This document shows, piece by piece, positions 612 through 20,633 of a stretch of DNA of 20,633 bases. The position numbers and the translations under genes are program-made. The notes below the pieces were generated by a model that saw nothing but the letters and a program-made list of their open reading frames with translations, searched no databases and had not been told where the DNA came from. Origin of the DNA: a virus (Duplodnaviria > Heunggongvirae > Uroviricota > Caudoviricetes); the IMG/VR virus record IMGVR_UViG_2606217106_000021. One strand, 5' to 3'. How positions within the stretch are numbered: the first letter of the stretch is position 1; each line of letters opens with the position of its first letter.

Positions 612-1280
612 ATGGTGAAATCAATGAAAAAAAACACAGATGATGGGGCTAAAATTTACACACCACTTACCCTAAAGCTTTATGACTGGTGGGTTTTGGG
701 AGTATCAAATCGGCTTGCATGGGGATGTCCTACAAAGGAACACCTTCTTCCACACTTTCTGGAACATGTAGGTAACAACCATCTGGATATTGGTGTTGGA
801 ACTGGGTTTTACCTTACTCACGTACCTGAGAGTAGTCTGATATCTTTAATGGATTTGAACGAAGCTAGCCTGAACGCGGCATCTACAAGGGCTGGGGAAT
901 CAAAAATTAAACATAAAATTAGCCATGATGTTTTTGAACCTTATCCCGCGGCGTTACATGGTCAATTTGATTCCATTTCCATGTTTTACCTTCTTCACTG
1001 CCTGCCTGGAAATATATCTACAAAAAGCTGTGTAATACGCAATGCGGCGCAGGCCTTAACTGACGATGGAACTCTATACGGAGCCACAATTCTTGGCGAT
1101 GGAGTTGTGCACAATAGCTTCGGTCAAAAACTGATGCGCATTTACAATCAGAAAGGCATCTTTTCAAACACAAAAGATTCCGAAGAAGGCTTAACACATA
1201 TACTCTCAGAGCATTTCGAGAATGTTAAAACCAAGGTTCAAGGTACTGTAGTAATGTTTTCCGCTTCAGGGAAAAAATAG
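612..1280 (+). CDS. Class I SAM-dependent methyltransferase (222 aa), cargo gene
   Basis: Only long ORF on the plus strand. It has the SAM-binding motif I signature LDIGVGTGFY. The gene is AT-rich relative to its neighbours, has an AT-rich upstream region (556-611) and ends 8 nt before the 11-bp hairpin at 1288-1320. An alternative start is at 624. From memory, the DLP12 prophage of E. coli K-12 has a methyltransferase pseudogene (ybcY) between tfa fragments. Confidence 0.75.
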   Translation: MVKSMKKNTDDGAKIYTPLTLKLYDWWVLGVSNRLAWGCPTKEHLLPHFLEHVGNNHLDIGVGTGFYLTHVPESSLISLMDLNEASLNAASTRAGESKIKHKISHDVFEPYPAALHGQFDSISMFYLLHCLPGNISTKSCVIRNAAQALTDDGTLYGATILGDGVVHNSFGQKLMRIYNQKGIFSNTKDSEEGLTHILSEHFENVKTKVQGTVVMFSASGKK

Positions 1281-1287
1281 CATCCAA

Positions 1288-1320
1288 CCGCAGCACGTTC
1301 TTGCTTAAGACGTGCTGCGG
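1288..1320. terminator. Perfect 11-bp stem hairpin between the convergent methyltransferase (+) and tfa (-) genes; probable bidirectional terminator
   Basis: ccgcagcacgt-tcttgcttaag-acgtgctgcgg is a perfect inverted repeat. On the minus strand a T-run (tattttttcc) follows about 8 nt after the stem. Confidence 0.5.
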
Positions 1321-1334
1321 CATAATCCCAATGA

Positions 1335-1919
1335 TTACTCCCTGACAGGGTTCGTAGGCCACTCAATATCAGGTGCAGTTGATGTATCAACACGGTTCAG
1401 CAACACCCGATACTTTTTCCAGGCTTCCAGCAATGAGGTTTCTTCCTCCGTTGCAATTTCCAGATCTGCAGCATCCTGAAGCGGCGCAATATGCTCACTG
1501 GCTACCTGCATCAGGTTGTTTTTTGTTTCTTCCGCCTCCCGGATCCGGAACAGTTTTTCTGCTTCTGCATCTTTCACCCAGGTTGTGCCGTTCCACTTCT
1601 GAAACTCCCCTTCTGGCGATAACCAGGTAACATTTTCCGGTAATAAGCCGAGTTCAGAAATAAATAACGCGTCGCCGGAAGCTACGTCATAAACCGTTTT
1701 ACCCCGATGATCTTCAACGAGATGCCACGATGCCTCATCACTGTTGAAAACAGCCACAAAGCCAGCCGGAATATCTGGCGGTGCAATATCGGTACTGTTT
1801 GCTGGCAGACCTGTATGAGGCGGAATATATGCGTCACCTTCACCAATAAATTCATTAGTTCCGGCCAGCAGATTATAAATTTTTATGGTCCGTGCTTGTT
1901 CACTCATTCTGAATGCCAT
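1335..1919 (-). CDS. tfa: Tail fibre assembly protein Tfa (194 aa)
   Basis: Near full-length identity to lambda Tfa as I recall it ([78 protein letters not shown]...), same 194-aa length. Its ATG overlaps the stf stop as TAATG at 1917-1921. Confidence 0.93.
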
Positions 1920-4900
1920 TATGCAAGCCTCACAATATAGTTAAATGCGATGTTTTTGACGGTGTTTTCCGCGTTACCCGCAGCGTTAACGGTGATGGTG
2001 TGTCCATGTGAACCAATCGCAACGGAGTGCGTATGCGCACCAATACCTACAGTATGTGCATGTGCGCCAGAACTTGCTGCAGTACCAGACAGCGAGTGGG
2101 TATGAGCACCTGCTGACTGTGTCTGAATACGTTGATAATACGATCTATAGGAAGAAGTCCCCGGGCTTACTTGATACTGTGAATTCTGGACATAAGTGAA
2201 CCCACCGCCATCATAAAATGCTAACGCAGAACCGCCGCCTCCTGGCCAACGAATACCATTACCATGAGTATGAACACCGGCAGACCCCGTAGAGCCACTC
2301 AGACTGTGCGTATGCGCCCCGGTGTTATTCGTGGATTTAGTGCCGTAATCAAACGACGATGTGGTTTTCGTCCCCAAATCCGTACTGGATGCGCTGGCGC
2401 TGTGGGTATGCGATTTAATGCCGTCCTGTTCCTGAGACAATACGGCCCGACCACTGGCAGGTTTGCCCTTAATCGTCCAGCCACGCATATCAGGGATCAC
2501 GCCTGACGGATAAGCGGCTGCAAGTTTCGGGTAGGCAGATTTGTTAAAAGTCTGCCCCTGCATCAGGGCATAACCAGACGGAACGGTATCTGATGGCCAC
2601 GGGATTGGTGCGCCAACTGGGTAGCTTTCTGGTGGAAGATTTTTCGAGGTATAAACTTCTGCCCAGTCTTCCTCAAAACCATAACCGTCTCTTGAAGAAC
2701 GGTAGAACAGACCACGATTTCTGTAATGCGCCTTCATCTGCAGGGTCCGGCAACTTCCGACTCCGGTATAGAAGTTAACCAGAATATAGCTGTCGCCAGA
2801 GCGGGTGACATTGTAAGCGCCTGATTCGGCATTCCAGGGAACGGCTCCATCCGAATCCGCATAAGCCCCCGTCGAACGTCGGGCAAATGCACCAATATTT
2901 TCCGACGTGAGGTTAATATCCGCCGAGCCATCAAACTTAACACCGTTAATTTTTGGGGCTGCCGCAAGTTTCGTCGCGGTATCGGCGTTCCCCTTCAGTG
3001 CCCCGGTGATCCCATCAGTAACAGACAACGGACCTGAAATAGTCCCTCCAGTCGTTGGCAGCGCTCCAATATCTGATGGTGTAGGTTTCTGATGTGAGCT
3101 ATACATCGTATAAACAACACCACCGGTAACGCTGGAAGGCTTACTCGCTGAATATGTTGGCGAGGTATAAATAGAAACTGACGCATTTGTAGTACAATCC
3201 CAATGGATATTTACACTCGTCGCATAATTGCCAATCTCAACGTAAATATCATATGTATCGCCGGATGTGTTGATCCAGGCGAAATTCGTTAATCCGACGG
3301 CTGTACGCTTCCACAAAGCTCCGGTAATCCCTTTGGGCTTTCCATTGCCTGCTCGTAGAACCAGTTCTGAAATGCCTGCCTGCTGTGGGGAGCCGACGTT
3401 GTAACCAGCGCCACCAATCAATGCGATGTAAACGATGGAACTCGCTTGTGGCATGGTAACCGTTGCCAGTTTGAACCACCCTGCCCCGCCAGAGAAAGAG
3501 ATCGTTACTGAATTTAAAGTGCCAATATCTTTCGGTGTTAATGTTATATCCGCAGTCAGTGCTTTCCCGTTAACTTTTCGGTTAGATGGTACCCTGCCAT
3601 TCGCATTGTCATTCGCTGCTTTAACTGCCTTCGGTGTCGCGGCAAGCGTTTCAGATGTGCTGTTGGTCGCACTGCTGAGCTGTACTATCCCCTTTTTCGT
3701 CGTACTTGCATCCTCAAGCGCCACGGCGGATGCAATATCCTCTGCCCGTTTTGCCGCTGTCTCGGCGCGCGTTGCCGCGGATTCCGCCGTACTTTTGCTC
3801 TGTGCTGCCGCCGTCGCACTGCCAGCTGCCTCTGTCGCCTTCGTGGATGCTGTCGTGGCGCTGCCCTTCGCTGCTGACGCCTGTCTGGTCGCCTCATCTT
3901 TTGAAGCTGACGCCGATGATGCCGATGACGCCGCCGAACTGGCGGACGATGCGGCAGCCGTTTTTGAGGATTCTGCGCTGGTTTCCGACGCTTTCGCGTT
4001 CGTCTCGGATGTCTTCGCTGCGGAAGCAGACCTTGCTGCTGCACTGGCCTGTTCAGTGGCTTTGCCAGCCTTCGTTGTGGCTGTTGAAGCGGATGATGCG
4101 GCGCTTTCTGCCGATTTTCCGGCGGCGGTGGCACTGGCTGAGGCCTGCCCGGCACTTGTTGACGCGGCACTGGCAGATGATGCAGCCGCTGTTTTTGAGC
4201 CTGCCGCAGCTGAGGCACTCTGTCCCGCTGCCGTTTCAGAAGACCTGGCGTTCGTCTCGGACGTCTTTGCCGCCTTCGCGGAATTTCCTGCCGCCGTTGC
4301 CGAGGAAGCTGCACTACTGGCACTTGATGATGCATTCGTTTCTGAAGATTTCGCTGCCTCTTTTGAGGCCGCCGCACCCCGTGCCGAGGTGGCAGCTTCT
4401 GACGCCTTCGTGGTCGCTGTGGATGCAGAAGTGGCTGCCGATTTTTGTGATGCTGCGGCATTCGTTTCTGACGTTTTCGCGGCACTGGCGCTGGTAGCTG
4501 CCGCGCTTTTTGATGACTCTGCAGCAGCAGCACTTTTTGCTGCTTCACGGGCCTTTGTCGATGCCGTTCCTGCGCTGGAAGACGCTGACTGAGCCGACGA
4601 CGCGGCCTGTCCGGCTGGCGTGCTGGCGGCACGTGCTGAGGCTGCAGCATCGGTTGCATGAGTTGCCGCCTCGCTGGCTGATGCACTGGCATCGCTGGCT
4701 GATTTTTTCGCGGCTGCCGTATTCTGTGCAACCGCGGAGGCGTTACGTGACACCTCTTCCACCATCTGCTCAAAGCGGCGCAGTGCCTCCGGTCGGACAT
4801 CATCCTCCGTCATGGCACCGAGAAAATCATTCAGCGTACCTGGTCTGGAACCTTCATAGACGGTAATGGTCCCGGCATGTGAAGGCGGAAAACCTTCAAC

Positions 4901-5089
4901 CAGCAGGGTGACGCTGTACTGACCATGCTCAACATCCATGCTGTAACGTCCGGCTTCATCCGGATTTTCAGAGGCCACCGTGTTCACCACCACCGTGCTG
5001 CTGGTTCGTCTGGCCTTCAGCACAATGGTGCAGTTCTGTACTGGTTTTCCTGTGCCATCTTTAAGCACGCCAGAAATTTTTACTGTCAT
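1919..5089 (-). CDS. stf: Side tail fibre protein Stf (1056 aa), unsplit
   Basis: The N-terminal ~120 aa ([22 protein letters not shown]...[14 protein letters not shown]) and the C-terminal ~250 aa (HxH repeats, ...[24 protein letters not shown]) match lambda Stf as recalled. A long Ala/Ser/Thr-rich repetitive central region accounts for the spurious antisense ORFs. The middle of the protein (about residues 480-800) does not match my recollection of lambda. Confidence 0.9.
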
Positions 5090-5103
5090 ACTTTTCCACC
5101 AAT

Positions 5104-5135
5104 AAAAAAAGCCCGCAGCAGTGACGCCACGGGCT
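5104..5135 (-). terminator. Hairpin plus T7 run immediately upstream of the stf start (minus-strand sense)
   Basis: Minus strand reads agcccg-(14-nt loop)-cgggct followed by ttttttt, ending about 15 nt before the stf ATG. The stem is only 6 bp with a large loop, so it is of modest strength. Confidence 0.4.
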
Positions 5136-5240
5136 TCAGGACAGTGTAACTTTACGTTTCCTCAAACGCAGTTCACCCCATAAAGTGGATGAACCTGCGT
5201 ATCATAACAATATTTACAGAAGATAAATCGGCGTCTGTTG

Positions 5241-6164
5241 TCAGAAACGGTAACGGGAAGAAGCCACCACTCCTTCAGACAACGCCTGTGCATCCTTAAT
5301 GGCTCCATAGCAACGAATCCCCTCTGCTGCCGTATTCCCCAGCACCAGCGTGCCCTCCGGCAGATAACGTTTTTCGGTACCGTCCTCTGCCACATAAGAC
5401 GTTTTCGCTACCACAATGGCCAGATCGCCGTAATACCCCTTGAAGGATACCACTGCGCCCAGATCTTTCACTGCCGTTTCGAGTTGTGAATTTGAACCGC
5501 GACGGGTATCCATTTTTTCGCGGAAAAGCTTAAAGCCATTCAGCAGACGCCAGACGGTACCGTCCATAATGGCAATATTCACAAGACCACTGGCCTGATC
5601 ACAGAAAAGGTCGATATCATATGTCGGGTCGAACGTGTCACGATCCTGTTTTGACCACTCCTTACCGCTACCTTGTATGATGTTATTCTTCGTCGATCGG
5701 CCAAAATCGACTTCAATTTTCTCGAACTGGTCTCCTTCCATCGTATATTTGCCATACAGCACGGCATTCACCGCCTGCATTTCTTCCACCTGCACAATAG
5801 CGTGCTCTTCCTGTTTGAGGTTATCAGTGATGATACGCAGACGACGGTAGGCCGGGTCGTTCAGCTGAGCCGGATCTTCACCGGGAAGGCGCTCAACCGC
5901 CTGCTGGTAATTAAATTCGTGTTTCGGCTTGACGTAGCCAGGACGCAACACGCGGGTTTCACCACCACGATGGCGCAGCACTTTTCCTTCAACGATCGGG
6001 GAGACATAGGCCGCCACCGGCGTTTTTCCGGTAATTTTGTCCAGCATCACCTCTTCGGTGTGGAAATTCACCGTACGGCGGAAAAACAGCTCCAGAAATA
6101 GCGCACGGAATTTAACTTTTTGTTCGGTATAACCGAGTAACTGGCGGGTCGTAAACAATCCCAT
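5241..6164 (-). CDS. E: Major capsid protein E, C-terminally truncated (307 aa, lambda E is 341 aa)
   Basis: Matches lambda E over most of its length (YVSPIV.G.V.R.RGG, PGYVKPKHE, QVEEMQAV.AVL.GKYTM, DTRRGSNS.LETAVKDLG, GDVAIVV). It ends ...SSRYRF* where lambda continues for about 35 more residues. Confidence 0.85.
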   Translation of the reverse strand: MGLFTTRQLLGYTEQKVKFRALFLELFFRRTVNFHTEEVMLDKITGKTPVAAYVSPIVEGKVLRHRGGETRVLRPGYVKPKHEFNYQQAVERLPGEDPAQLNDPAYRRLRIITDNLKQEEHAIVQVEEMQAVNAVLYGKYTMEGDQFEKIEVDFGRSTKNNIIQGSGKEWSKQDRDTFDPTYDIDLFCDQASGLVNIAIMDGTVWRLLNGFKLFREKMDTRRGSNSQLETAVKDLGAVVSFKGYYGDLAIVVAKTSYVAEDGTEKRYLPEGTLVLGNTAAEGIRCYGAIKDAQALSEGVVASSRYRF

Positions 6165-6221
6165 AAATCAGTTCCTTTCATTCAGAAATCAGTCAGGCCA
6201 CCATGGTGGCCTGATAACGTG

Positions 6222-6569
6222 TTACGGCAGAGCCGCGTGACTCAGGGCTGTGCCGGCAAAGGCATTTGCCTTTTTGTGTTCATCCACACTGTCAGGCCAG
6301 CGGATTGCCTCCGTCGCAAAGGTCCCCGACTTGTAATAGGTCAGCACCGTCTCTGTGCCTTCAAGCGGCAGTACCAGTATGCCAACCGCACTACCGGCTT
6401 TCTGTCCATCCCAGACCACCAGTTTCCCGGTGGCTTCATCCAGCATCAGGGGCGTCAGAGCCGGTGTTGCAGAAGAAATCCCGCTGCTGCCTGTGGCGGT
6501 ATGAGCCGGATCATTACCAGCAAAAATACGTACTTCCGCACGCTGTTCAGTGATGGTTTTCGTCACCAT
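6222..6569 (-). CDS. D: Head decoration protein D (115 aa)
   Basis: Matches lambda D as recalled: DPAHTAT, TPLMLD, KLV(A)WDG, AVGIL, TYYKSGTF, AFAGTA. Confidence 0.85.
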   Translation of the reverse strand: MVTKTITEQRAEVRIFAGNDPAHTATGSSGISSATPALTPLMLDEATGKLVVWDGQKAGSAVGILVLPLEGTETVLTYYKSGTFATEAIRWPDSVDEHKKANAFAGTALSHAALP

Positions 6570-6605
6570 TTTGTTAAAACCTCATATTGATGGTCAGCAC
6601 TGACT

Positions 6606-6944
6606 TCATGGCATGGCCATGAGCATTTTCACGTCCGCATCACCGTCTGCTGACGTCTGTGACACGCCACCCCGCACCGCTGCCGGTGAATGATTCGCCA
6701 TGAAATGTTCAAACAGGGCGGTTGTGGATGCAGAGACCGGTTCGGCCTTACCTGATCCCGCAGCCAGCACAGCCCGGGCGTTCTCCACGGTCATTCCCGG
6801 GCAGGCCGCCAGTTTTTCAGCCTGCGCTTCTGCCCCTTTTGCCTCATCCAGGGCCATGATCTGATCACGAAGTGAGGGCCCGGCATCCGCCAGTGGTGCA
6901 GCCGCCAGGATCGGGCGGGCTTTTTCCACCGTCATCTCCGGCAT
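6606..6944 (-). CDS. Nu3-like scaffolding segment (112 aa), in a different frame from C
   Basis: Contains PGMTVEKARPILAAAP and a second PGMTVENARAVLAAGS copy, resembling the lambda C/Nu3 C-terminal region (ETPGMTVKTARRILAAAP). It overlaps the C stop by 13 nt and is out of frame with it. Confidence 0.55.
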   Translation of the reverse strand: MPEMTVEKARPILAAAPLADAGPSLRDQIMALDEAKGAEAQAEKLAACPGMTVENARAVLAAGSGKAEPVSASTTALFEHFMANHSPAAVRGGVSQTSADGDADVKMLMAMP

Positions 6945-7546
6945 CGCCGCCAGCGTTGACCGGCATAGCTGACATGGCTCATCATCACGCCAATGGAGCC
7001 GATACGGGATGTCTGGGTAACCAGCCGTCGGGAGCAGGCCGACGCCAGCAGCATGGCTGCAGAACAGGCCGTGTCATTGCACAGTGCCCAGACCGGCTTC
7101 TGCTGACGGAGGCGGTAAATCATGTCAGCGCAGTCAAACGCGCCGGCGGCCTGCCCGCCCGGACTGTCAATGTCCAGCAGTACGCCCCGCACCTGGCTAT
7201 CCGCCATTGCCTGCTGAAGACAGGCGACAATACCGTCATAGCCTGTCATTCCGGAAAATGGCCGCATACCACCCAGCCGGTGCACCAGCGTGCCGGTCAC
7301 CGGCAGTACAGCAATACCGTTCACCACCCGGTAAACACGGGCCGGTCGTTTACCTCCGGCCATGTACTCGTCCGTTTCAGCCAGCATCCCGGGAGCATCA
7401 AGCTGTACCTGCTGTTGCGGTACCGAAAGACTTGCTGCCCCCATCTCGCGCCCCAGCGCGCAAAAGAAAACCCGCGCATAGGCGGGCTCCAGAAGCAGCG
7501 GTTCATTGAATGCTGCTGCAATAATGTGTGAAAGATTACGTCTCAC
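6932..7546 (-). CDS. C: Head maturation protease C, protease domain only (204 aa, lambda C is about 439 aa); probably disrupted
   Basis: The N-terminus (AFNEPLLLEPAYARVFFCAL ... GMTGYDGI ... GVLLDIDSPGG ... AGAFDCAD ... KPVWAL ... RRLVTQT.R.GSIGVM) matches lambda C (S49-type). The ORF stops where lambda C continues for more than 200 residues. Confidence 0.7.
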   Translation of the reverse strand: MRRNLSHIIAAAFNEPLLLEPAYARVFFCALGREMGAASLSVPQQQVQLDAPGMLAETDEYMAGGKRPARVYRVVNGIAVLPVTGTLVHRLGGMRPFSGMTGYDGIVACLQQAMADSQVRGVLLDIDSPGGQAAGAFDCADMIYRLRQQKPVWALCNDTACSAAMLLASACSRRLVTQTSRIGSIGVMMSHVSYAGQRWRRCRR

Positions 7547-9128
7547 GTGGTGTTGTCTCCTCTTCCGGCCTGCGACTCTCCGCTATCTGCTGCTGATACG
7601 CCTGCGCTATCCACACCGGACGTGAGAGTCCGGCTTTTTGCCGCTCAGCAGATTCCCTGACCTGCTGGCGGAAAATGTCCTGATAATCCTCGCCCATCAG
7701 CGCCAGCTCTTTCTCATACGTGCTCAGTCCGGCCTCAATGCGCATCACTGATTCCTGGACTTCCTTGAGCCCGTCAATGGCCATTCTTCCGGCACCAATC
7801 CACTCTGCCCGTGACCAGGCTGATCGCGCCTGATAAAAATCAAAACGTGCCCGTGGCGGACGAATAATCCCCCGAAGAAGTGCCTCTTCCAGCCAGCAGG
7901 AAAACATCTGCGTGGCCAGCCGGGCCGCAATAAATTTTCGTCGCCCCATAAAATAGCGCCACGACTCATTGGCGGAGGCGCGGGCACTTGAGTAACTGAC
8001 CTTCGAGTAATCACGGGACAACTGTTCGTAGGAAACGCCAAGACCGGCGGCGATATACCGCAGCAGCGCCTGTTCAAGCGCAGAAAATCCATTGTCTGAA
8101 TCCTGCGCAGTCTGTAGTTTCAGATCATCACCAGGGAAAAGGTGCGGAATTTTGACACCGCCCAGTGTCACGTTATTCGTGTCATACCAGCTGGAGAACT
8201 TCTCCAGAATATTAATAAGCGGATTATCCTTCTGCTCCTGTGGCGCGCCGGCGATATATTCAAAGGCCTTTTCGGTATCAAGTTCACTTTCAATCGTCGC
8301 TGCATACATCGCCTTCACTATGGCCGACTGAAGCTGTGTTGCCTGCAGGGAATCGAGCATCTTCAGCCGTTCCATGACGCTGTAAAACTGATTAGCCCCA
8401 CGGGTCTGCCCGTCCTCCACCGGCTCGAAAATATGCAGCATGGCCGGACGCCCGGTGGGAAGTTCACGCGGGATCCGTTCCCATCGTCCACTCCCAGAGA
8501 ACGGAAAATCATCCTCACAAATATGGTACGCGACGGCACGGCCATATCGATCGACCTCCACACCGGCCCGCAGAAAACGGTTCCCCATACCGTGTCCAGG
8601 CGTGTCCACCCGTTTCGGACTCACGGCTTTAAAACGCGTACGGAATAACTGCGTGGTTTCCGTATCCCAGACCGGCTGCACAAAGATTTCGCCGTTAAAC
8701 GCATGAACGCCCACACCTTCACGGATAAATTCCGTGAACGTGCGTTTTCCTTCCACGTCGATCTCGCCAAACATCCCTTCGGCGTATTCCGACCAGGCCG
8801 CCTCCACCTCATCGACAAAGCTTTTTGCTGCGGTCTCCCGCATCCCCAGCCAGCGCCAGTTCGGACGGTAGCTGATCAGAAACATATGCCCGACAATATG
8901 ATCCTTATGCAGGGCCACCGCATTAGCCGCTATCCCGTTATTGCGCACCAGATCATCTGCCCGGGCATTCCCCAGACGCAACGCAGGCAGCAGGGCTGCA
9001 TCGGCACTCTGCGCCGGTGGCAACCACTCCGCCATTTGCCCGCCAAATCCTGCGCCGCCCCCGTTGTAGCTGAGACTCTCACGAAGCGGAACGCCGTTCA
9101 CATCAATCAGGACAGGCGTTCGTTTCAT
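7536..9128 (-). CDS. B: Portal protein B (530 aa)
   Basis: Matches lambda B along its length (GNARADDLVRNNG.AANA, FEPVEDGQTRGAN.FYSVME, LQSAIVKAMYAATIESELDT, LLRYIAAGLGVSYEQLSR, GRMAIDGLKEVQE). Lambda B is 533 aa. Confidence 0.93.
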   Translation of the reverse strand: MKRTPVLIDVNGVPLRESLSYNGGGAGFGGQMAEWLPPAQSADAALLPALRLGNARADDLVRNNGIAANAVALHKDHIVGHMFLISYRPNWRWLGMRETAAKSFVDEVEAAWSEYAEGMFGEIDVEGKRTFTEFIREGVGVHAFNGEIFVQPVWDTETTQLFRTRFKAVSPKRVDTPGHGMGNRFLRAGVEVDRYGRAVAYHICEDDFPFSGSGRWERIPRELPTGRPAMLHIFEPVEDGQTRGANQFYSVMERLKMLDSLQATQLQSAIVKAMYAATIESELDTEKAFEYIAGAPQEQKDNPLINILEKFSSWYDTNNVTLGGVKIPHLFPGDDLKLQTAQDSDNGFSALEQALLRYIAAGLGVSYEQLSRDYSKVSYSSARASANESWRYFMGRRKFIAARLATQMFSCWLEEALLRGIIRPPRARFDFYQARSAWSRAEWIGAGRMAIDGLKEVQESVMRIEAGLSTYEKELALMGEDYQDIFRQQVRESAERQKAGLSRPVWIAQAYQQQIAESRRPEEETTPRET

Positions 9129-9331
9129 AACCTCACTCCCAGCGGACGACGGCGACGTCGGGTTGTCCCCAGTACCGACTCCGCATCATTGATCGCCCGG
9201 TTAAGCTCATCCAGAGAAGCCGCCGTATATTCAATTCTGCGACCATCTTTCTGGACAGACACCACCCGTTTACCGGTTAATAAATCAAGGCGCGCCTGAC
9301 GCAGCGCCTGTAGTTCAGCGACTGTAACCAT
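9125..9331 (-). CDS. W: Head-tail joining protein W (68 aa)
   Basis: [23 protein letters not shown] matches lambda W ([23 protein letters not shown]). Its stop overlaps the B start as ATGA. Confidence 0.8.
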
Positions 9332-11408
9332 TCACTCCTCCGGACAGCTTCGCTGCCAGTTCTTTAAGGGTTGGCCGGGTCGTCTCTTCTTCCCGGGATT
9401 TTGCCAGTACAGCCAGATCAAGCTGCCAGCGTTGCACGGACACACGTAATGCCGCATAGGCATACACCAGGCAGTCCAGCGCTTCGTTACGCCGCTTTTT
9501 GTTATCCCACAGCAGACGCATCTTTCCTTTTTCCCACTTCTCCACAAGCTCTTCCGCGACCAGTTGCTGCGCCTCTGTCTGCGAAAAAATCTCCGGATCA
9601 TCAGGAAAATGGATGGCATACGACGTGGCTTCATCCGCAGGAGTGGGATCGGCTTTCATACGGGCATAGAGAATTTCTTTTGCGGTGTCCGTCCCCACTT
9701 CACACAGATACACGCCCCGCTGATTGCGGGTTTTCGGCATGGTGATCACCGGCTTGCCATAGACAGATGCGCCTTTTACCGGCAGCACCCGGAAAACACC
9801 GTGTTTTTTTGACCTCTGATAGACAATTTCACCATCGATCCCCCCGGTGTCCCAGCAGACACGGGAAATGGTCATTTCGGTTCCGTCTGCATGGCAGTAT
9901 TTTTTGTTGATCGCCGCATCCACACGTAACAGCGTCTCTTCCTCATCGGGACGGCCCATAATGATGATTTTATCCACCAGAAAAGCTTCCTCTCCCGGTG
10001 CCCATCCCCAGACATACATCTCAAAACGGTTTCGCTGCGAGTCAATGCCCGCCGTCAGATAAACCACCCGGGCTGGCACCGCCGCCGTGTAATGCACGAC
10101 CTTATCCATCAGTACCTGGTGATCGAGTTTTTCGCCCACGGCCTCTTCAGAAGCCACATCGGATGCTTTCGCGATTTCAGTTTTCACAGCATCAAGATGT
10201 ACGGGTGATATATCAGGGTATTTACGCTGCAGTGTCTGAGGGACACGGACAAGGATCCCTGATATATTCTGTGCCACTCGCTGAAAGATGTAGGTAAATA
10301 ACTCCGTCTCGAGGACAAGGCCTTCCTCACGAGCATTTTTCAGCTCCTGTGCATCGGCCTGTGCCTTCGTCAGTCGGTAACGTTCGTAATCAATGGTGCC
10401 GGGCTGAAGGTCTGATTCGCTGGCAGCCCTCAAATCCTCGATCTCTTTACGGAGTTTTTCGTTTTCAATATCAGCTTCCCTCTGCGCATACCACTGAATG
10501 GCAGCAGTTGTATCAAAAACTGATTCAGTCCCTTTCCCTCCACCAGAAACTAGTGGTAACCCCTGACTCTGCCAGGCGGTGACTGATGCCGGACTTCCAC
10601 CGTGACACTGCGCCGCCAGCCCGGCAAGGTCAGCACGGAACTGCTGTACCATTGCAAGAAATGCTGCTGGCTGCTGGGCGTAACTGGCATTCGTCATATC
10701 GAATTCCCCCTGCATCCAGCATATCGCCAGCAAAACGTTTTTCGGGTTTTTCTGCAATGCTGCCTTCGTGCGGAAAAGCAGATCCTGATATAACGGCTTA
10801 CCCACTCCCCAGCGAGCCGAATCCTGACTGGCCCCCGTGGACTCGCTGAATGTCCCCTCCGTGCCCTGGGTGAATGCCGAACCACCACGACAGCATGGTA
10901 CCAGCAGGATCCCCGCGTTATTAGGGATATACGGAAGCAGTTTTTTGGCAATATGTAAGCCCTGTCCGACACAGCCGTACTGCCCTTTGCTCAGGTCAGC
11001 CCGGGGATGGTTAATCGTACTCATATCCTGAACATCATGCAGACAATGGTCAGCAGGAATGATGTCGTTAAATACGCATACTTCACCACCGGGAGTCACT
11101 GTGTTACGACGGGCCAGTTGCTTAATGCGCGGATGGGGCGCATCGTATGAATCCGGCAGCGGAAGCCCTTCACCGTAAGCCATGGCATTGGACTGCCCGG
11201 CCAGTACGATGACGTAGTACCAATCCGGCTCAGTTGCACCACTGACCACCACATCACCTTCTGCTGCAATCGCCTGCATCAGGGTATAAGGGGTTATGGC
11301 CACCGGACTACCAAACGGCTGCCAGCCCTCCTTCAGTTTTTGTGTCAGTCGTTTCGCAAGGTCTGACGGCGATACCGCCCTGACCACGTCATAGTGTTTA
11401 AATGCCAT
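9315..11408 (-). CDS. Chimeric ORF (697 aa): DUF1737-like/SASA-type esterase-like N-terminal region joined to the terminase large subunit (gpA) C-terminal domain
   Basis: Residues about 430-697 match lambda gpA's C-terminal region ([64 protein letters not shown]). Residues about 60-300 carry a [11 protein letters not shown] motif typical of SASA/SGNH sialate O-acetylesterases, which I associate with prophage nanS-p genes. A coiled-coil-like linker (about 310-420) matches neither. No terminase ATPase N-terminal region and no upstream nu1 are present. Confidence 0.7.
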
Positions 11409-11600
11409 GAATCCTCCCGGCCGGGATAATATTGTGAGTAAAATAAGGAGCGGGCTGAAGTCCGGAAGTTACAGGACAATGGCAGAAGAGAGACGACAGC
11501 CCGCAATTCGAAAAAGACCGCGCAGTTGCGCAGAGTGATTACTATGGGGTATTATTCGCCAGCTGAAATATTACTTCACGTTTTATTGTTTATTCCTTGC

Positions 11601-11630: not shown

Positions 11631-11635
11631 GCCCA

Positions 11636-11885
11636 CAAGAAAACCCCTCCGGAGAGGGGCTAAAGCCGCGTATCTGTATCATCATGCACATGGTGCCGGG
11701 TGCCTCCCGGTGAGTTCAGCCCGGTGCCACTAAACCCGCGTCATTCTCGTTTTGATAATCAGAGATTATACCGTCACCAGTCGCCCCTCCGCTCAGGGGG
11801 ATTCACCATGCGAAATTTTTTTAACAAATGCCCAGTCTGACAGGCAACTGTCAACTTACTGAATTGTGAGCAACATAGCATTTAA
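11636..11885. repeat. Repeat unit A of a diverged direct repeat (partner at about 12122-12340)
   Basis: Shares identical blocks with unit B: aaaacccctccggagaggggct, catggtgccgggtgcctcccggtga, cccctccgcNcagggggattcaccatg, ttttaacaaa, gtcaac, ctgaattNtgag. Sequence between the blocks has diverged. Confidence 0.7.
11637..11660 (-). terminator. Minus-strand rho-independent terminator (repeat unit A)
   Basis: Minus strand reads cccctc-tccg-gagggg followed by ttttcttg. It is back to back with the plus-strand terminator at 11601-11630. Confidence 0.55.
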
Positions 11886-11934: not shown

Positions 11935-12121
11935 TGGAAGGATAGCGGTCATGTGATGCCGGTTTCCCGGTAACTCAGCACCGGTATCTGAGTCAACGTT
12001 TTCTCTACTGGGTCATTTCCGATACGCCCTGCCTGCTGACAGGCTTTCATCACATCTGAAAATATAGCACCCTGACTGATACTGTAGTACCTAAGGTTCC
12101 AGAAACTGTGATGTATCCGGC

Positions 12122-12148
12122 ACAGAAAAGCCCCTCCGGAGAGGGGCT
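12122..12148 (-). terminator. Minus-strand rho-independent terminator (repeat unit B)
   Basis: Minus strand reads gcccctc-tccg-gaggggc, a perfect 7-bp GC stem, followed by ttttctg. Confidence 0.6.
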
Positions 12149-12340
12149 GGAGAGTGGCGCTATGTGCCATTGCATGGTGCCGGGTGCCTCCCGGTGAATT
12201 CAGTACCAGCACCTGAATCCGCGATTATCCCATATACCTACTCGCTGATTGCCCCTCCGCACAGGGGGATTCACCATGCCAGTTTCTTTTAACAAACTCC
12301 CCGCAAACCAGACAACAGTCAACCGCCTGAATTATGAGAC
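12122..12340. repeat. Repeat unit B (partner of 11636-11885)
   Basis: Same conserved hairpin blocks as unit A. The hairpin cccctccgcacaggggg differs from unit A only in the loop (a versus t). Confidence 0.7.
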
Positions 12341-12383: not shown

Positions 12384-12460
12384 TGGCGCGTTGTACTGGA
12401 TTCGAACCAGTGACCGATTGCTTAGAAGGCAATTGCTCTGTCCGGCTGAGCTAACAACGC
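12384..12460 (-). tRNA. argO: tRNA-Arg (anticodon UCU)
   Basis: Reverse complement folds as a cloverleaf: acceptor GCGTTGT/ACAACGC, T-loop GGTTCGAATCC, anticodon loop CTTCTAA, 3' GCCA. The symbol is by analogy with the ileZ-argN-argO cluster of Stx-type lambdoid phages and is not verified. Confidence 0.85.
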
Positions 12461-12473
12461 ATGATGCAGATAA

Positions 12474-12550
12474 TGGACCGCCATCGGGGACTTGAACCCC
12501 GCGCAGCCAGCTTCGAAGGCTGGCGCTCTTTCCTGATGAGCTAATGGCGG
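12474..12550 (-). tRNA. argN: tRNA-Arg (anticodon UCG)
   Basis: Reverse complement: acceptor CCGCCAT/ATGGCGG, T-arm CGGGG-TTCAAGT-CCCCG, anticodon loop CTTCGAA, 3' TCCA. Symbol by analogy only. Confidence 0.8.
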
Positions 12551-12557
12551 TATGTGA

Positions 12558-12633
12558 TGGTGGCCCTTGCTGGATTTGAACCAGCGACCTGGCGATTATG
12601 AGTCGCTCGCTCTCACCACTGAGCTAAAGGGCC
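12558..12633 (-). tRNA. ileZ: tRNA with CAU anticodon, Ile2 (lysidine) type
   Basis: Reverse complement GGCCCTTTAGCTCAGTGGTGAGAGCGAGCGACTCATAATCGCCAGGTCGCTGGTTCAAATCCAGCAAGGGCCACCA closely resembles E. coli ileX-type tRNA (anticodon loop CTCATAA). Symbol by analogy only. Confidence 0.8.
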
Positions 12634-12661
12634 GAGCCAAAAAATAATAATCAGATGAAAA

Positions 12662-13375
12662 TCAATAATCAAGCCCTTGCCTGGATACATATCTGTCTGG
12701 CGGGAAGCCATAATAGCGGTGAAATACAGAAATAAAGTAGGACCTGCTTGAATAACCGCATTTTTCTGCTATAGCCTGTCCATATCCATGCCGGGAACAT
12801 AACATATTTACAGCAACACGCATCCGCTCTTCCAGCAACAAGCGACTGAACATGCCCCCTTCATTTTTCAGTTTTGTCTTTAACAAACTCTCACTCATAT
12901 GCAACTGTAGAGCAATCGCACCAAGCGTCCAGCTTGCTGATATATCTGTCTGAATTATCGCCCTGACTTTGGCACTTATGCTGGATAAACATCCACTTAA
13001 AAACAATGACATCCGTTCATCTGTTTCAAACAGAGACAGGCAGGCCATCATAAGAAACATATCCGTGGCCTCTCCGGAAAATCCCTGGCTGGTAATTAAA
13101 GCCGCAGCCAACGCAGGATTGTTGGGTTCCAGCAACAGGTAAAGCGGAATGTCAGTCAGACGAGTCCTCGTCAGCTTATGCTGACTTTCCAGATATTGAC
13201 TTACGACGGATTCGCTTATATCGACAATTTTAACTTTGCCATAATGCATAAGGAAAAGCTCCCTGATGCATTTGGTGGCCAGAACAACTGAGCCTGGCTT
13301 AAGTGACAACGTATCCTTTTCAAGAAAAATATTAATTGGGGAGCAAACCATGATAACTGAACAGACAACAGCCAT
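12662..13375 (-). CDS. AraC/XylS-family transcriptional regulator, AppY-like (237 aa)
   Basis: C-terminal AraC-type HTH (AIAEKCGYSSRSYFISVFHRYYGFPP). The N-terminus MAVVCSVIMVC...KIVDI resembles AppY (MDYVCSVVFIC...RIVDI, recalled from memory). AT-rich; the 13376-13509 gap upstream could hold its own promoter. Confidence 0.85.
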   Translation of the reverse strand: MAVVCSVIMVCSPINIFLEKDTLSLKPGSVVLATKCIRELFLMHYGKVKIVDISESVVSQYLESQHKLTRTRLTDIPLYLLLEPNNPALAAALITSQGFSGEATDMFLMMACLSLFETDERMSLFLSGCLSSISAKVRAIIQTDISASWTLGAIALQLHMSESLLKTKLKNEGGMFSRLLLEERMRVAVNMLCSRHGYGQAIAEKCGYSSRSYFISVFHRYYGFPPDRYVSRQGLDY

Positions 13376-13495
13376 TATAATTTTACTTTCATTAGCAATT
13401 GGTTAGCTCAATTATAGCCCCAAAAGGTAAATTATCATCAACACATAAGCAAAGGACTGACAGGTGTCGCCCCCCCACCAGCCGCCCATTCACCA

Positions 13496-13523
13496 CAAAT
13501 AAAAAGCCTTCAGGACTGAAGGC
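13496..13523 (-). terminator. Minus-strand terminator overlapping the stop of the 65-aa ORF
   Basis: Stem gccttca/tgaaggc with a ggac loop; on the minus strand it is followed by tttttatttg. Confidence 0.45.
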
Positions 13524-13707
13524 GTCTGTAACAACCGCACTGATAGTCTGCCAGACCCGCCATAACAAGCTGGGTCAGTATTAACTGGCAGCGTTCGCGT
13601 GAAAGGTAAGTATTCTGCGCAATCTCCCCGACTGTCGCCGGTTCGGTAACGCTTAATTCATCAAACACAACTCTGGCGGTTTCTGTCATATCCTGCTGTT
13701 TCAGCAT
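13510..13707 (-). CDS. Hypothetical small protein (65 aa), possibly a DNA-binding protein
   Basis: ORF with its own terminator hairpin at its 3' end. I did not recognise a family; the idea of a small helix-turn-helix fold is only an impression from composition. Confidence 0.4.
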   Translation of the reverse strand: MLKQQDMTETARVVFDELSVTEPATVGEIAQNTYLSRERCQLILTQLVMAGLADYQCGCYRRLQS

Positions 13708-13831
13708 GTCTTTTTACCCTTTCCGGTTAACGTGACATACCAATAACTCTTGTCTAAAAAGCCAGCAAGATAAAAAGCCAGTATTCACGACCACCAGCGT
13801 GTTTACTGTACTGCACCAAGTTTACAGGTAC

Positions 13832-20483: not shown

Positions 20484-20633
20484 GGTGACAGCCCCTATGT
20501 TGAATTCAATGAACTCACCACCAAGGCTTTCCACGACCATATAGGTGGTGAGACGTACAGGGGTGGAAATACCGGTCAACATAGAACCCGGCCCAACCGA
20601 AGTTGGCCCTGCACGCCCCACCATAATTTGGGC

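Follow-up and report, generated by a model that had tools for sequence, protein, structure and literature searches.

Cryptic lambdoid prophages of Escherichia coli K-12 (for example DLP12, Rac and Qin) have lost parts of their late operons through stepwise deletions and carry gene fragments and fusion open reading frames (ORFs). A comparable ORF occupies positions 9315-11408 on the minus strand of a 20,633-nucleotide (nt) stretch of Caudoviricetes DNA, IMG/VR record IMGVR_UViG_2606217106_000021, hereafter referred to as the window. Its 697-residue product combines the N-terminal part of the prophage sialate O-acetylesterase NanS-p with parts of the terminase proteins Nu1 and gpA, and the ORF is very probably a chimeric pseudogene generated by deletions within a defective, phage-21/lambda-like prophage located at ompW of E. 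coli.

The parental proteins have described relatives against which the chimera can be read. In the structure of NanS/YjhS (3PT5), the four conserved blocks of the SGNH esterases are GQSNA at residues 17-21, RGGSAF at 120-125, MQGEFD at 178-183 and R-x-S-H-F-S at 298-303 (PMC10792757), and the last of these reads RSSH, RASH or RPTH in NanS-p proteins (PMC10462455). According to the account of Rangarajan et al. (2011) given in PMC10017367, mutagenesis established that NanS catalysis requires both the serine and the histidine. The large terminase subunit of lambda, TerL, consists of an ATPase domain at residues 29-366 and a nuclease domain at about 373-623, its C-terminal residues contact the portal, and the terminase protomer is catalytically inert until it assembles through contacts between TerS and TerL (PMC10810279).

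Composition of the chimeric open reading frame

The ORF is uninterrupted over 697 codons from the ATG at 11408 to the stop codon at 9315-9317, as described in the first-pass annotation of the sequence. The product is identical to NCBI protein WP_072006177.1 (KDY52182.1), which is already on public record under the name 'terminase gpA endonuclease subunit', and it has 11 E. coli entries in UniParc. In reverse orientation the window matches, without any difference, nucleotides 1-20,633 of an E. coli draft contig (JNRB01000033.1, assembly GCA_000704465.1; locus L003). Four Pfam families are matched along the protein, namely DUF1737 at residues 3-50, SASA at 66-262 (profile positions 4-157 of 226), Phage_Nu1 at 266-419 (E = 3.6e-74; profile positions 9-162 of 164) and GpA_nuclease at 422-656 (E = 1.7e-52; profile positions 51-286 of 294), and a search of the chimera against NCBIfam gave no match. 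The esterase-type GQSN motif and the gpA nuclease and C-terminal domain recognized in the first-pass annotation are therefore both present, the former as GQSNA at residues 71-75 within the SASA match. Its statement that nu1 is absent proved wrong, since 438 nt of nu1 are retained in frame at 10582-10145, with 100% identity to nu1 of E. coli APEC E12049 and a single difference (1/438 nt) from that of E. coli 55989.

Mapping of the DNA against intact prophages divides the chimera into NanS-p residues 1-276, Nu1 residues 20-164 and gpA residues 366-642. The nanS-p-derived part (10581-11408, minus strand) supplies codons 1-276 and is 100% identical to NanS-p of the ompW prophage of 55989; the nu1-derived part (10145-10582, minus strand) corresponds to chimera residues 277-421; and the gpA-derived part (9315-10148, minus strand) contains the nuclease domain in full as well as the C-terminal tail, with its DNA 97.7% identical to gene 2 of phage 21. 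BLASTP of the chimera returned NanS-p 1-276 at 100% identity, Nu1 9-164 at 94% over the span and gpA 351-642 at 95%; these protein-level spans run wider than the true limits of the Nu1 and gpA parts, which are taken from the DNA mapping.

The embedded nu1 segment bears directly on how the fusion arose. A single deletion, with the esterase gene abutting the 3' part of gene A and no nu1 left between them, would fit the one large gap that does separate nanS-p from the terminase genes. Against it stand the 438 nt of nu1 lying between the other two parts, the two separate junctions, each with its own microhomology, and the existence of relatives that carry the second junction in the absence of the first. 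This model is accordingly refuted and retains a negligible probability. The earlier proposal of a deletion-made, in-frame fusion holds in that the chimera is real, and is revised in that two deletions and three genes (nanS-p'::'nu1'::'A) are involved.

Junctions and order of the deletions

Breakpoints were mapped against the intact prophages of E. coli APEC E12049 (locus L001) and E. coli 55989 (locus L008), with which the window is collinear apart from four gaps. The 55989 prophage lies at the same chromosomal site as the window, as both share the ompW fragment and yciE at the window end. The first gap (Δ1) is marked by junction 1 at 10581/10582 (minus strand; GGAAGTCCGGCATCAGTCACCGCCTGGCAGAGTCAGGGG), where nanS-p nt 828 (codon 276) is joined to nu1 nt 56 (codon 19/20) at a 2-nt microhomology, TC. 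It measures 5,265 bp relative to the related contig L009 (positions 886-6150), and takes out the 3' 1,029 nt of nanS-p, the holin, YdfR-like, lysozyme and Rz genes, two accessory genes, cosN/cosB and the first 55 nt of nu1. The frame stays open across this junction because nanS-p and nu1 are in the same frame and the length of Δ1 is a multiple of three. The second gap (Δ2) is marked by junction 2 at 10145-10148 (minus strand; GCATCCGATGTGGCTTCTGAAGAGGCCGTGGGCGAAAAACTC), where nu1 codon 164 meets gene A codon 366 at the 4-nt microhomology GAAG; it is 1,126 bp long relative to 55989 and exactly offsets the +1 frame difference between nu1 and A. Of these two junctions, the second falls within the interval of 10130-10500 in which the first-pass annotation had expected a breakpoint and the first lies just outside it.

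The remaining two gaps affect the head and tail genes. Δ3, with its junction near 6957, is a deletion of about 565 bp at a 1-nt microhomology within gpC, the head protease/scaffold gene C, and shifts the frame such that the ORF stops eight codons later, leaving a truncated gpC of 204 residues at 6932-7546 (minus strand). The C-terminal third of gpC persists as an ORF of its own at 6606-6944, called as 109 or 112 residues. Δ4, at 5248-5252, joins nt 918 of the major capsid gene E to the last 12 nt of lom at a 5-nt microhomology and spans 12.9 kb; it leaves a truncated E of 307 residues at 5241-6164 (minus strand) and takes out FI through J, and with them every tail gene. Downstream of Δ4, the genes for the side tail fibre and for tail fibre assembly are retained and are 100% identical to those of 55989. 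Across 5248-6965, from the 3' part of C through D to E, the window is 94.5% identical to the 55989 prophage with both flanks at about 99%, a pattern that indicates a probable mosaic exchange with another lambdoid phage.

A homologue search with the chimera recovered an intermediate form. The 440-residue protein P0003 consists of Nu1 1-164 fused to gpA 366-642 with a junction sequence identical to junction 2, and it is encoded on two contigs, L009 (GCA_907175995.1) and L010 (Logan assembly of run ERR1949031), in both of which Δ3 and Δ4 are the same as in the window. L009 has an intact 618-codon nanS-p together with the holin, lysozyme and Rz genes, and its cosN is identical to that of lambda (GGGCGGCGACCT) and lies 181 nt upstream of nu1. 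Joined end to end, L009 positions 58-885 and 6149-7416 give the chimeric ORF with no nucleotide differences, and L010 differs from the window by one mismatch and one gap in 8 kb. As a separate observation, position 1 of L010 corresponds to L009 5924, such that the contig begins exactly at the last cosN base; the assembly probably broke off there, at a repeat common to several prophages, and alternatively the reads may derive from cos-cut DNA.

As L009 and L010 carry the nu1::A fusion along with Δ3 and Δ4, and as the ORF matches the L009 flanks without nucleotide differences, the comparison places Δ2, Δ3 and Δ4 earlier and the nanS-p/nu1 deletion Δ1 last and very recent. Already before Δ1 the element had no ATPase domain, a frameshifted gpC and neither the end of gpE nor any tail gene, and it is thus predicted to have been unable to package DNA or to build heads and tails by then; lysis and cos are all that Δ1 would have removed in addition. 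The first-pass annotation was correct on the final state, an element without packaging or lysis, and mistaken in attributing it to one deletion that fused two genes, since packaging had been lost in the L009/L010 form before the deletion in nanS-p. With the ancestor, the penultimate intermediate and the final form all at hand, event order and exact junctions are directly readable from the alignments. An ancestor like the intact 55989 prophage first underwent three microhomology-mediated deletions of 1,126 bp (nu1/A), about 565 bp (gpC) and 12.9 kb (E to lom), and a fourth, very recent deletion of 5,265 bp then brought codon 276 of nanS-p together with codon 19/20 of nu1, leaving the frame open. 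At the level of aligned breakpoints, four deletions at microhomologies of 1-5 nt are shown in this order, consistent with illegitimate recombination.

Authenticity and distribution of the allele

The window derives from a draft assembly (JNRB01000033.1), and E. coli genomes contain many similar lambdoid prophages, with up to 16 matching places per genome, from which it could be argued that short-read assembly wrongly linked repeated prophage sequences at the junctions. The same 697-residue product is found, however, on contigs of two E. coli draft assemblies at NCBI, with three GenBank protein accessions, and in two unrelated European Nucleotide Archive metagenome assemblies (ERZ18534435 and ERZ28624562), and the variant P0002, which differs by one residue, is encoded on a Logan contig. 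As the three NCBI isolates may be related, independent support for the junctions comes mainly from the metagenomes and the Logan contig. In addition, the microhomologies of 2 and 4 nt are far below any assembler k-mer and cannot mislead an assembler, and junction 2 recurs in L009 and L010. As two assembly sources besides the NCBI drafts share the junction and the microhomologies are too short, misassembly, which the first-pass annotation had allowed for, is very unlikely, and an artefact of assembly or sequencing is scarcely credible as the origin of the ORF.

The carriers differ in their surroundings. One of them, L004 (GCA_000704505.1), shows 11 mismatches over 12.6 kb relative to the window, and upstream of the tRNAs it encodes an N6/N4 DNA methyltransferase (L004 1-1446; likewise L012 1-1445) at the place taken in the window by an AraC-type gene with an HTH_18 domain (12649-13722). 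From these differing upstream modules it follows that the allele is present in at least two prophage backgrounds. IMG/VR gave L012 as the single match; its span and its mismatch and gap counts relative to the window are the same as those of L004, so that L012 probably represents that element and adds no independent support.

Searches of wider collections were negative. No record covering at least 80% of the ORF was found among 5,426 complete E. coli genomes or among 50,697 phage records, none of 72,556 plasmids matched a 731-nt probe over both junctions for at least 80% of its length, and the junction 30-mers had no match in 185,579 GTDB species representatives or in the JGI metagenome collection. 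Nor was an intact or inducible phage with the three-part architecture found among the 50,697 phage records, the finding that the first-pass annotation had named as one that would overturn its deletion reading. Taken together, the counts place the allele as rare, in a minority E. coli lineage.

Predicted consequences for the encoded protein

The esterase part retains three of the four SGNH blocks. Block I, with the nucleophilic serine, aligns with 3PT5 GQSNA 17-21, and blocks II and III are present as RGGSAF at residue 174 and MQGEFD at residue 232. The intact NanS-p parent aligns with 3PT5 over residues 59-379 and has an RPTH block (THFS from residue 358) in which His359 corresponds to His301 of 3PT5; the chimera part ends at residue 276 and lacks this block, as well as about 100 further residues of the esterase fold. 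Also missing is DUF6645 (parent residues 468-578), a lectin-like C-terminal domain (PDB 6YP6), and tblastn of NanS-p 277-618 found no match in the window. The Pfam SASA envelope at residues 66-262 was considered as a sign of truncation and dropped, as the intact 618-residue parent gives the same envelope; truncation is established by the 3PT5 alignment and the positions of the SGNH blocks. Because the histidine block is gone, the chimera would be unable to act as an esterase.

In the Nu1 part, the first 19 residues, which form the start of the winged helix-turn-helix, are replaced by NanS-p sequence. The intact N-terminus is preserved in P0003 as MNVNKKKLADIFGVDVRTI, and the winged helix-turn-helix domain as a whole is spanned by PDB 1J9I (Nu1 residues 1-68). 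The last 18 residues of Nu1 (165-182), belonging to the C-terminal region that binds the TerL N-terminus, are deleted, and so is the partner, the N-terminal Nu1-binding helix of gpA; at least part of the four-helix bundle and the TerS-TerL contacts are predicted to be lost as a result. With the helix-turn-helix broken and cos itself deleted, the chimera is predicted to be incapable of cos recognition.

The gpA part begins at residue 366, which aligns with lambda residue 366, and the retained residues 366-642 span the lambda nuclease domain at 373-623. The GpA_ATPase match, at residues 46-293 in the intact parent, has no counterpart in the chimera, and tblastn of gpA 1-365 gave no match in the window, in agreement with the first-pass annotation that the terminase ATPase region is missing. 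As Δ2 took out the ATPase domain in its entirety, the chimera should be unable to package DNA. Among all parts of the protein, only the nuclease domain and C-terminal tail of gpA appear complete. An AlphaFold2 model of the chimera, built on a 38-sequence alignment, reached a mean predicted local distance difference test score (pLDDT) of 38 and a predicted template modelling score (pTM) of 0.27 and was too poor for use, probably as a result of the MAFFT alignment of the chimera against its separate parents.

Signals for expression are those of the parental gene. A Shine-Dalgarno sequence, GGGAGG (11413-11418, minus strand), lies 5 nt upstream of the ATG at 11408 and is the native translation start of nanS-p, and the DNA upstream of the chimera start is identical to that of the intact nanS-p in L009. 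Translation would be expected from this ribosome-binding site whenever Q-dependent late transcription passes the terminator-rich leader that precedes the ORF.

Other fusion ORFs from E. coli prophages occur among database proteins outside the window. In P0060, lambda-type Nu1 1-131 continues into gpA from about residue 303, P0051 and P0070 are likewise nu1-A fusions, of the full read-through kind, and P0010 is an 890-residue protein in which the NanS-p N-terminus is fused to a tail fibre.

Remnant or retained function

The product of the chimeric ORF is most likely a non-functional remnant under no selection, to judge from the parts that it lacks. Several observations weigh against this reading. 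Both fusions are in frame, junction 2 lies almost exactly at the interdomain linker between ATPase and nuclease and preserves a complete nuclease domain, and the allele has been kept in carriers with unlike sequence upstream of the tRNAs and about 0.1% divergence elsewhere. These in-frame joins, the linker position and the persistence may leave room for a retained or new activity. The frame in itself is not remarkable, as two in-frame fusions are expected by chance in about 1 in 9 cases if the events are independent and the newest alone in 1 in 3. Selection cannot be read from substitutions, since none have occurred after the last deletion; the ratio of nonsynonymous to synonymous substitution rates (dN/dS) is not calculable, and the sequence shows neither relaxed nor purifying selection.

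An activity of this kind could take the form of an exapted fragment, in which the Nu1-linked gpA nuclease and tail are kept to hinder packaging by, or to cut the DNA of, superinfecting phage-21-like phages, with the NanS-p N-terminus as a neutral add-on. The nuclease domain (lambda 373-623) and the portal-contacting C-terminal residues (PMC10810279) are complete, the frame is kept at both junctions, the upstream modules vary among the strains with the allele, and an independent lambda-type fusion of Nu1 to the gpA C-terminus exists in P0060. The junction in P0060 (Nu1 131 to gpA about 303) lies elsewhere, however, and does not respect domain limits, and protein searches detect in-frame fusions only, such that recurrence is expected from the sampling of very many E. 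coli genomes. Furthermore, the lambda protomer is inert until TerS/TerL assembly (PMC10810279), for which the contacts are predicted to be lost here, the allele is rare (0/5,426 complete genomes), and there are no accumulated substitutions with which to test selection. Exaptation is on balance highly improbable. Its more specific form, in which the Nu1-linked nuclease domain, first in P0003 and now with a NanS-p N-terminus, would serve as a prophage decoy, blocking the packaging of incoming phage-21-like phages by attachment to their portals or terminase partners, is a longer shot still; if true, the decoy would represent a defence built from a broken terminase.

A satellite or an element resembling the phage-inducible chromosomal islands, with its own redesigned terminase, was also considered and rejected, as all parts match ordinary prophage genes at 99-100% identity and the intermediates derive from these by simple deletion.

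State of the prophage and its surroundings

The window does not have the makings of an inducible lambdoid prophage, as cos and the lysis cassette are missing and the head and tail genes are incomplete. A search for cosN in the window was negative, and tblastn with the holin, YdfR, lysozyme and Rz proteins of the 55989 prophage found no match there, in line with the absence of the lysis cassette stated in the first-pass annotation. Likewise, tblastn with FI, FII, Z, U, V, H, J and Lom of a related intact prophage had no match in the window, and of the proteins used as queries only gpC and gpE were found, both truncated. The gpW gene (9125-9331, minus strand) and the 3' end of the chimeric ORF overlap in exactly the manner of gpW and gene A in intact relatives.

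Upstream of the ORF, a cluster of three tRNAs (12384-12633, minus strand), identified by ARAGORN as Arg-tct, Arg-tcg and Met-cat, marks the usual position of nanS-p in the late operon. The tRNA at 12558-12633 (minus strand), called tRNA-Met (CAT) by ARAGORN, is annotated as tRNA-Ile by RefSeq in related prophages, which fits the usual lambdoid trio of Ile, Arg and Arg. The leader of roughly 1 kb between the tRNA cluster and the chimeric ORF contains 14 terminator-like hairpins as compared to 3.3 expected, including a repeated AGCCCCTCTCCGGAGGGG stem. Two full-length Rfam matches to the small RNA family STnc100 are found in this leader at 11631-11840 and 12118-12308 (minus strand; 161 and 136 bits). 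Further Rfam matches in the window are a C4 antisense RNA at 20541-20628 (minus strand; 82 bits), near a pRha-family gene at the early end, and an IS009 RNA at 1378-1576 (minus strand; 226 bits), inside the tail fibre assembly region.

Comparison with known systems

For annotation, the RefSeq name 'terminase gpA endonuclease subunit' hides a three-gene chimera that lacks both the esterase histidine and the terminase motor, and neither a functional nanS-p copy nor a terminase should be scored for the 697-residue protein. With the prophage sialate O-acetylesterases, such as NanS-p of 933W and vb_24B_21 of phi24B, and with the chromosomal NanS/YjhS (3PT5), the chimera shares DUF1737 and three SGNH blocks, and its gene shares with intact nanS-p the position downstream of the tRNA cluster and the ribosome-binding site. 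It differs from NanS-p in ending at residue 276 of 618, without the RPTH block, the remainder of the fold and the DUF6645 domain. Compared with Nu1 of lambda and gp1 of phage 21 (PDB 1J9I and 6HN7), residues 20-164 are kept, whereas the N-terminal 19 and C-terminal 18 residues and the cognate cos site are deleted. Compared with gpA of lambda and gp2 of phage 21, residues 366-642 are kept, whereas the Nu1-binding helix and the entire ATPase domain are absent, and with them the motor.

The chimera is a case of ordinary prophage decay, one more deletion-generated fusion ORF in a decaying lambdoid prophage, and opens no new biological question. Its stepwise decay is fully documented with exact junctions at microhomologies of 1-5 nt and may be of use in teaching or as a lineage marker. 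Like DLP12, Rac and Qin, the element is fixed in the chromosome and unable to lyse or package. In contrast to those prophages, the distinctive feature here is that both the intact form, in 55989, and the penultimate intermediate, in L009 and L010, are at hand.

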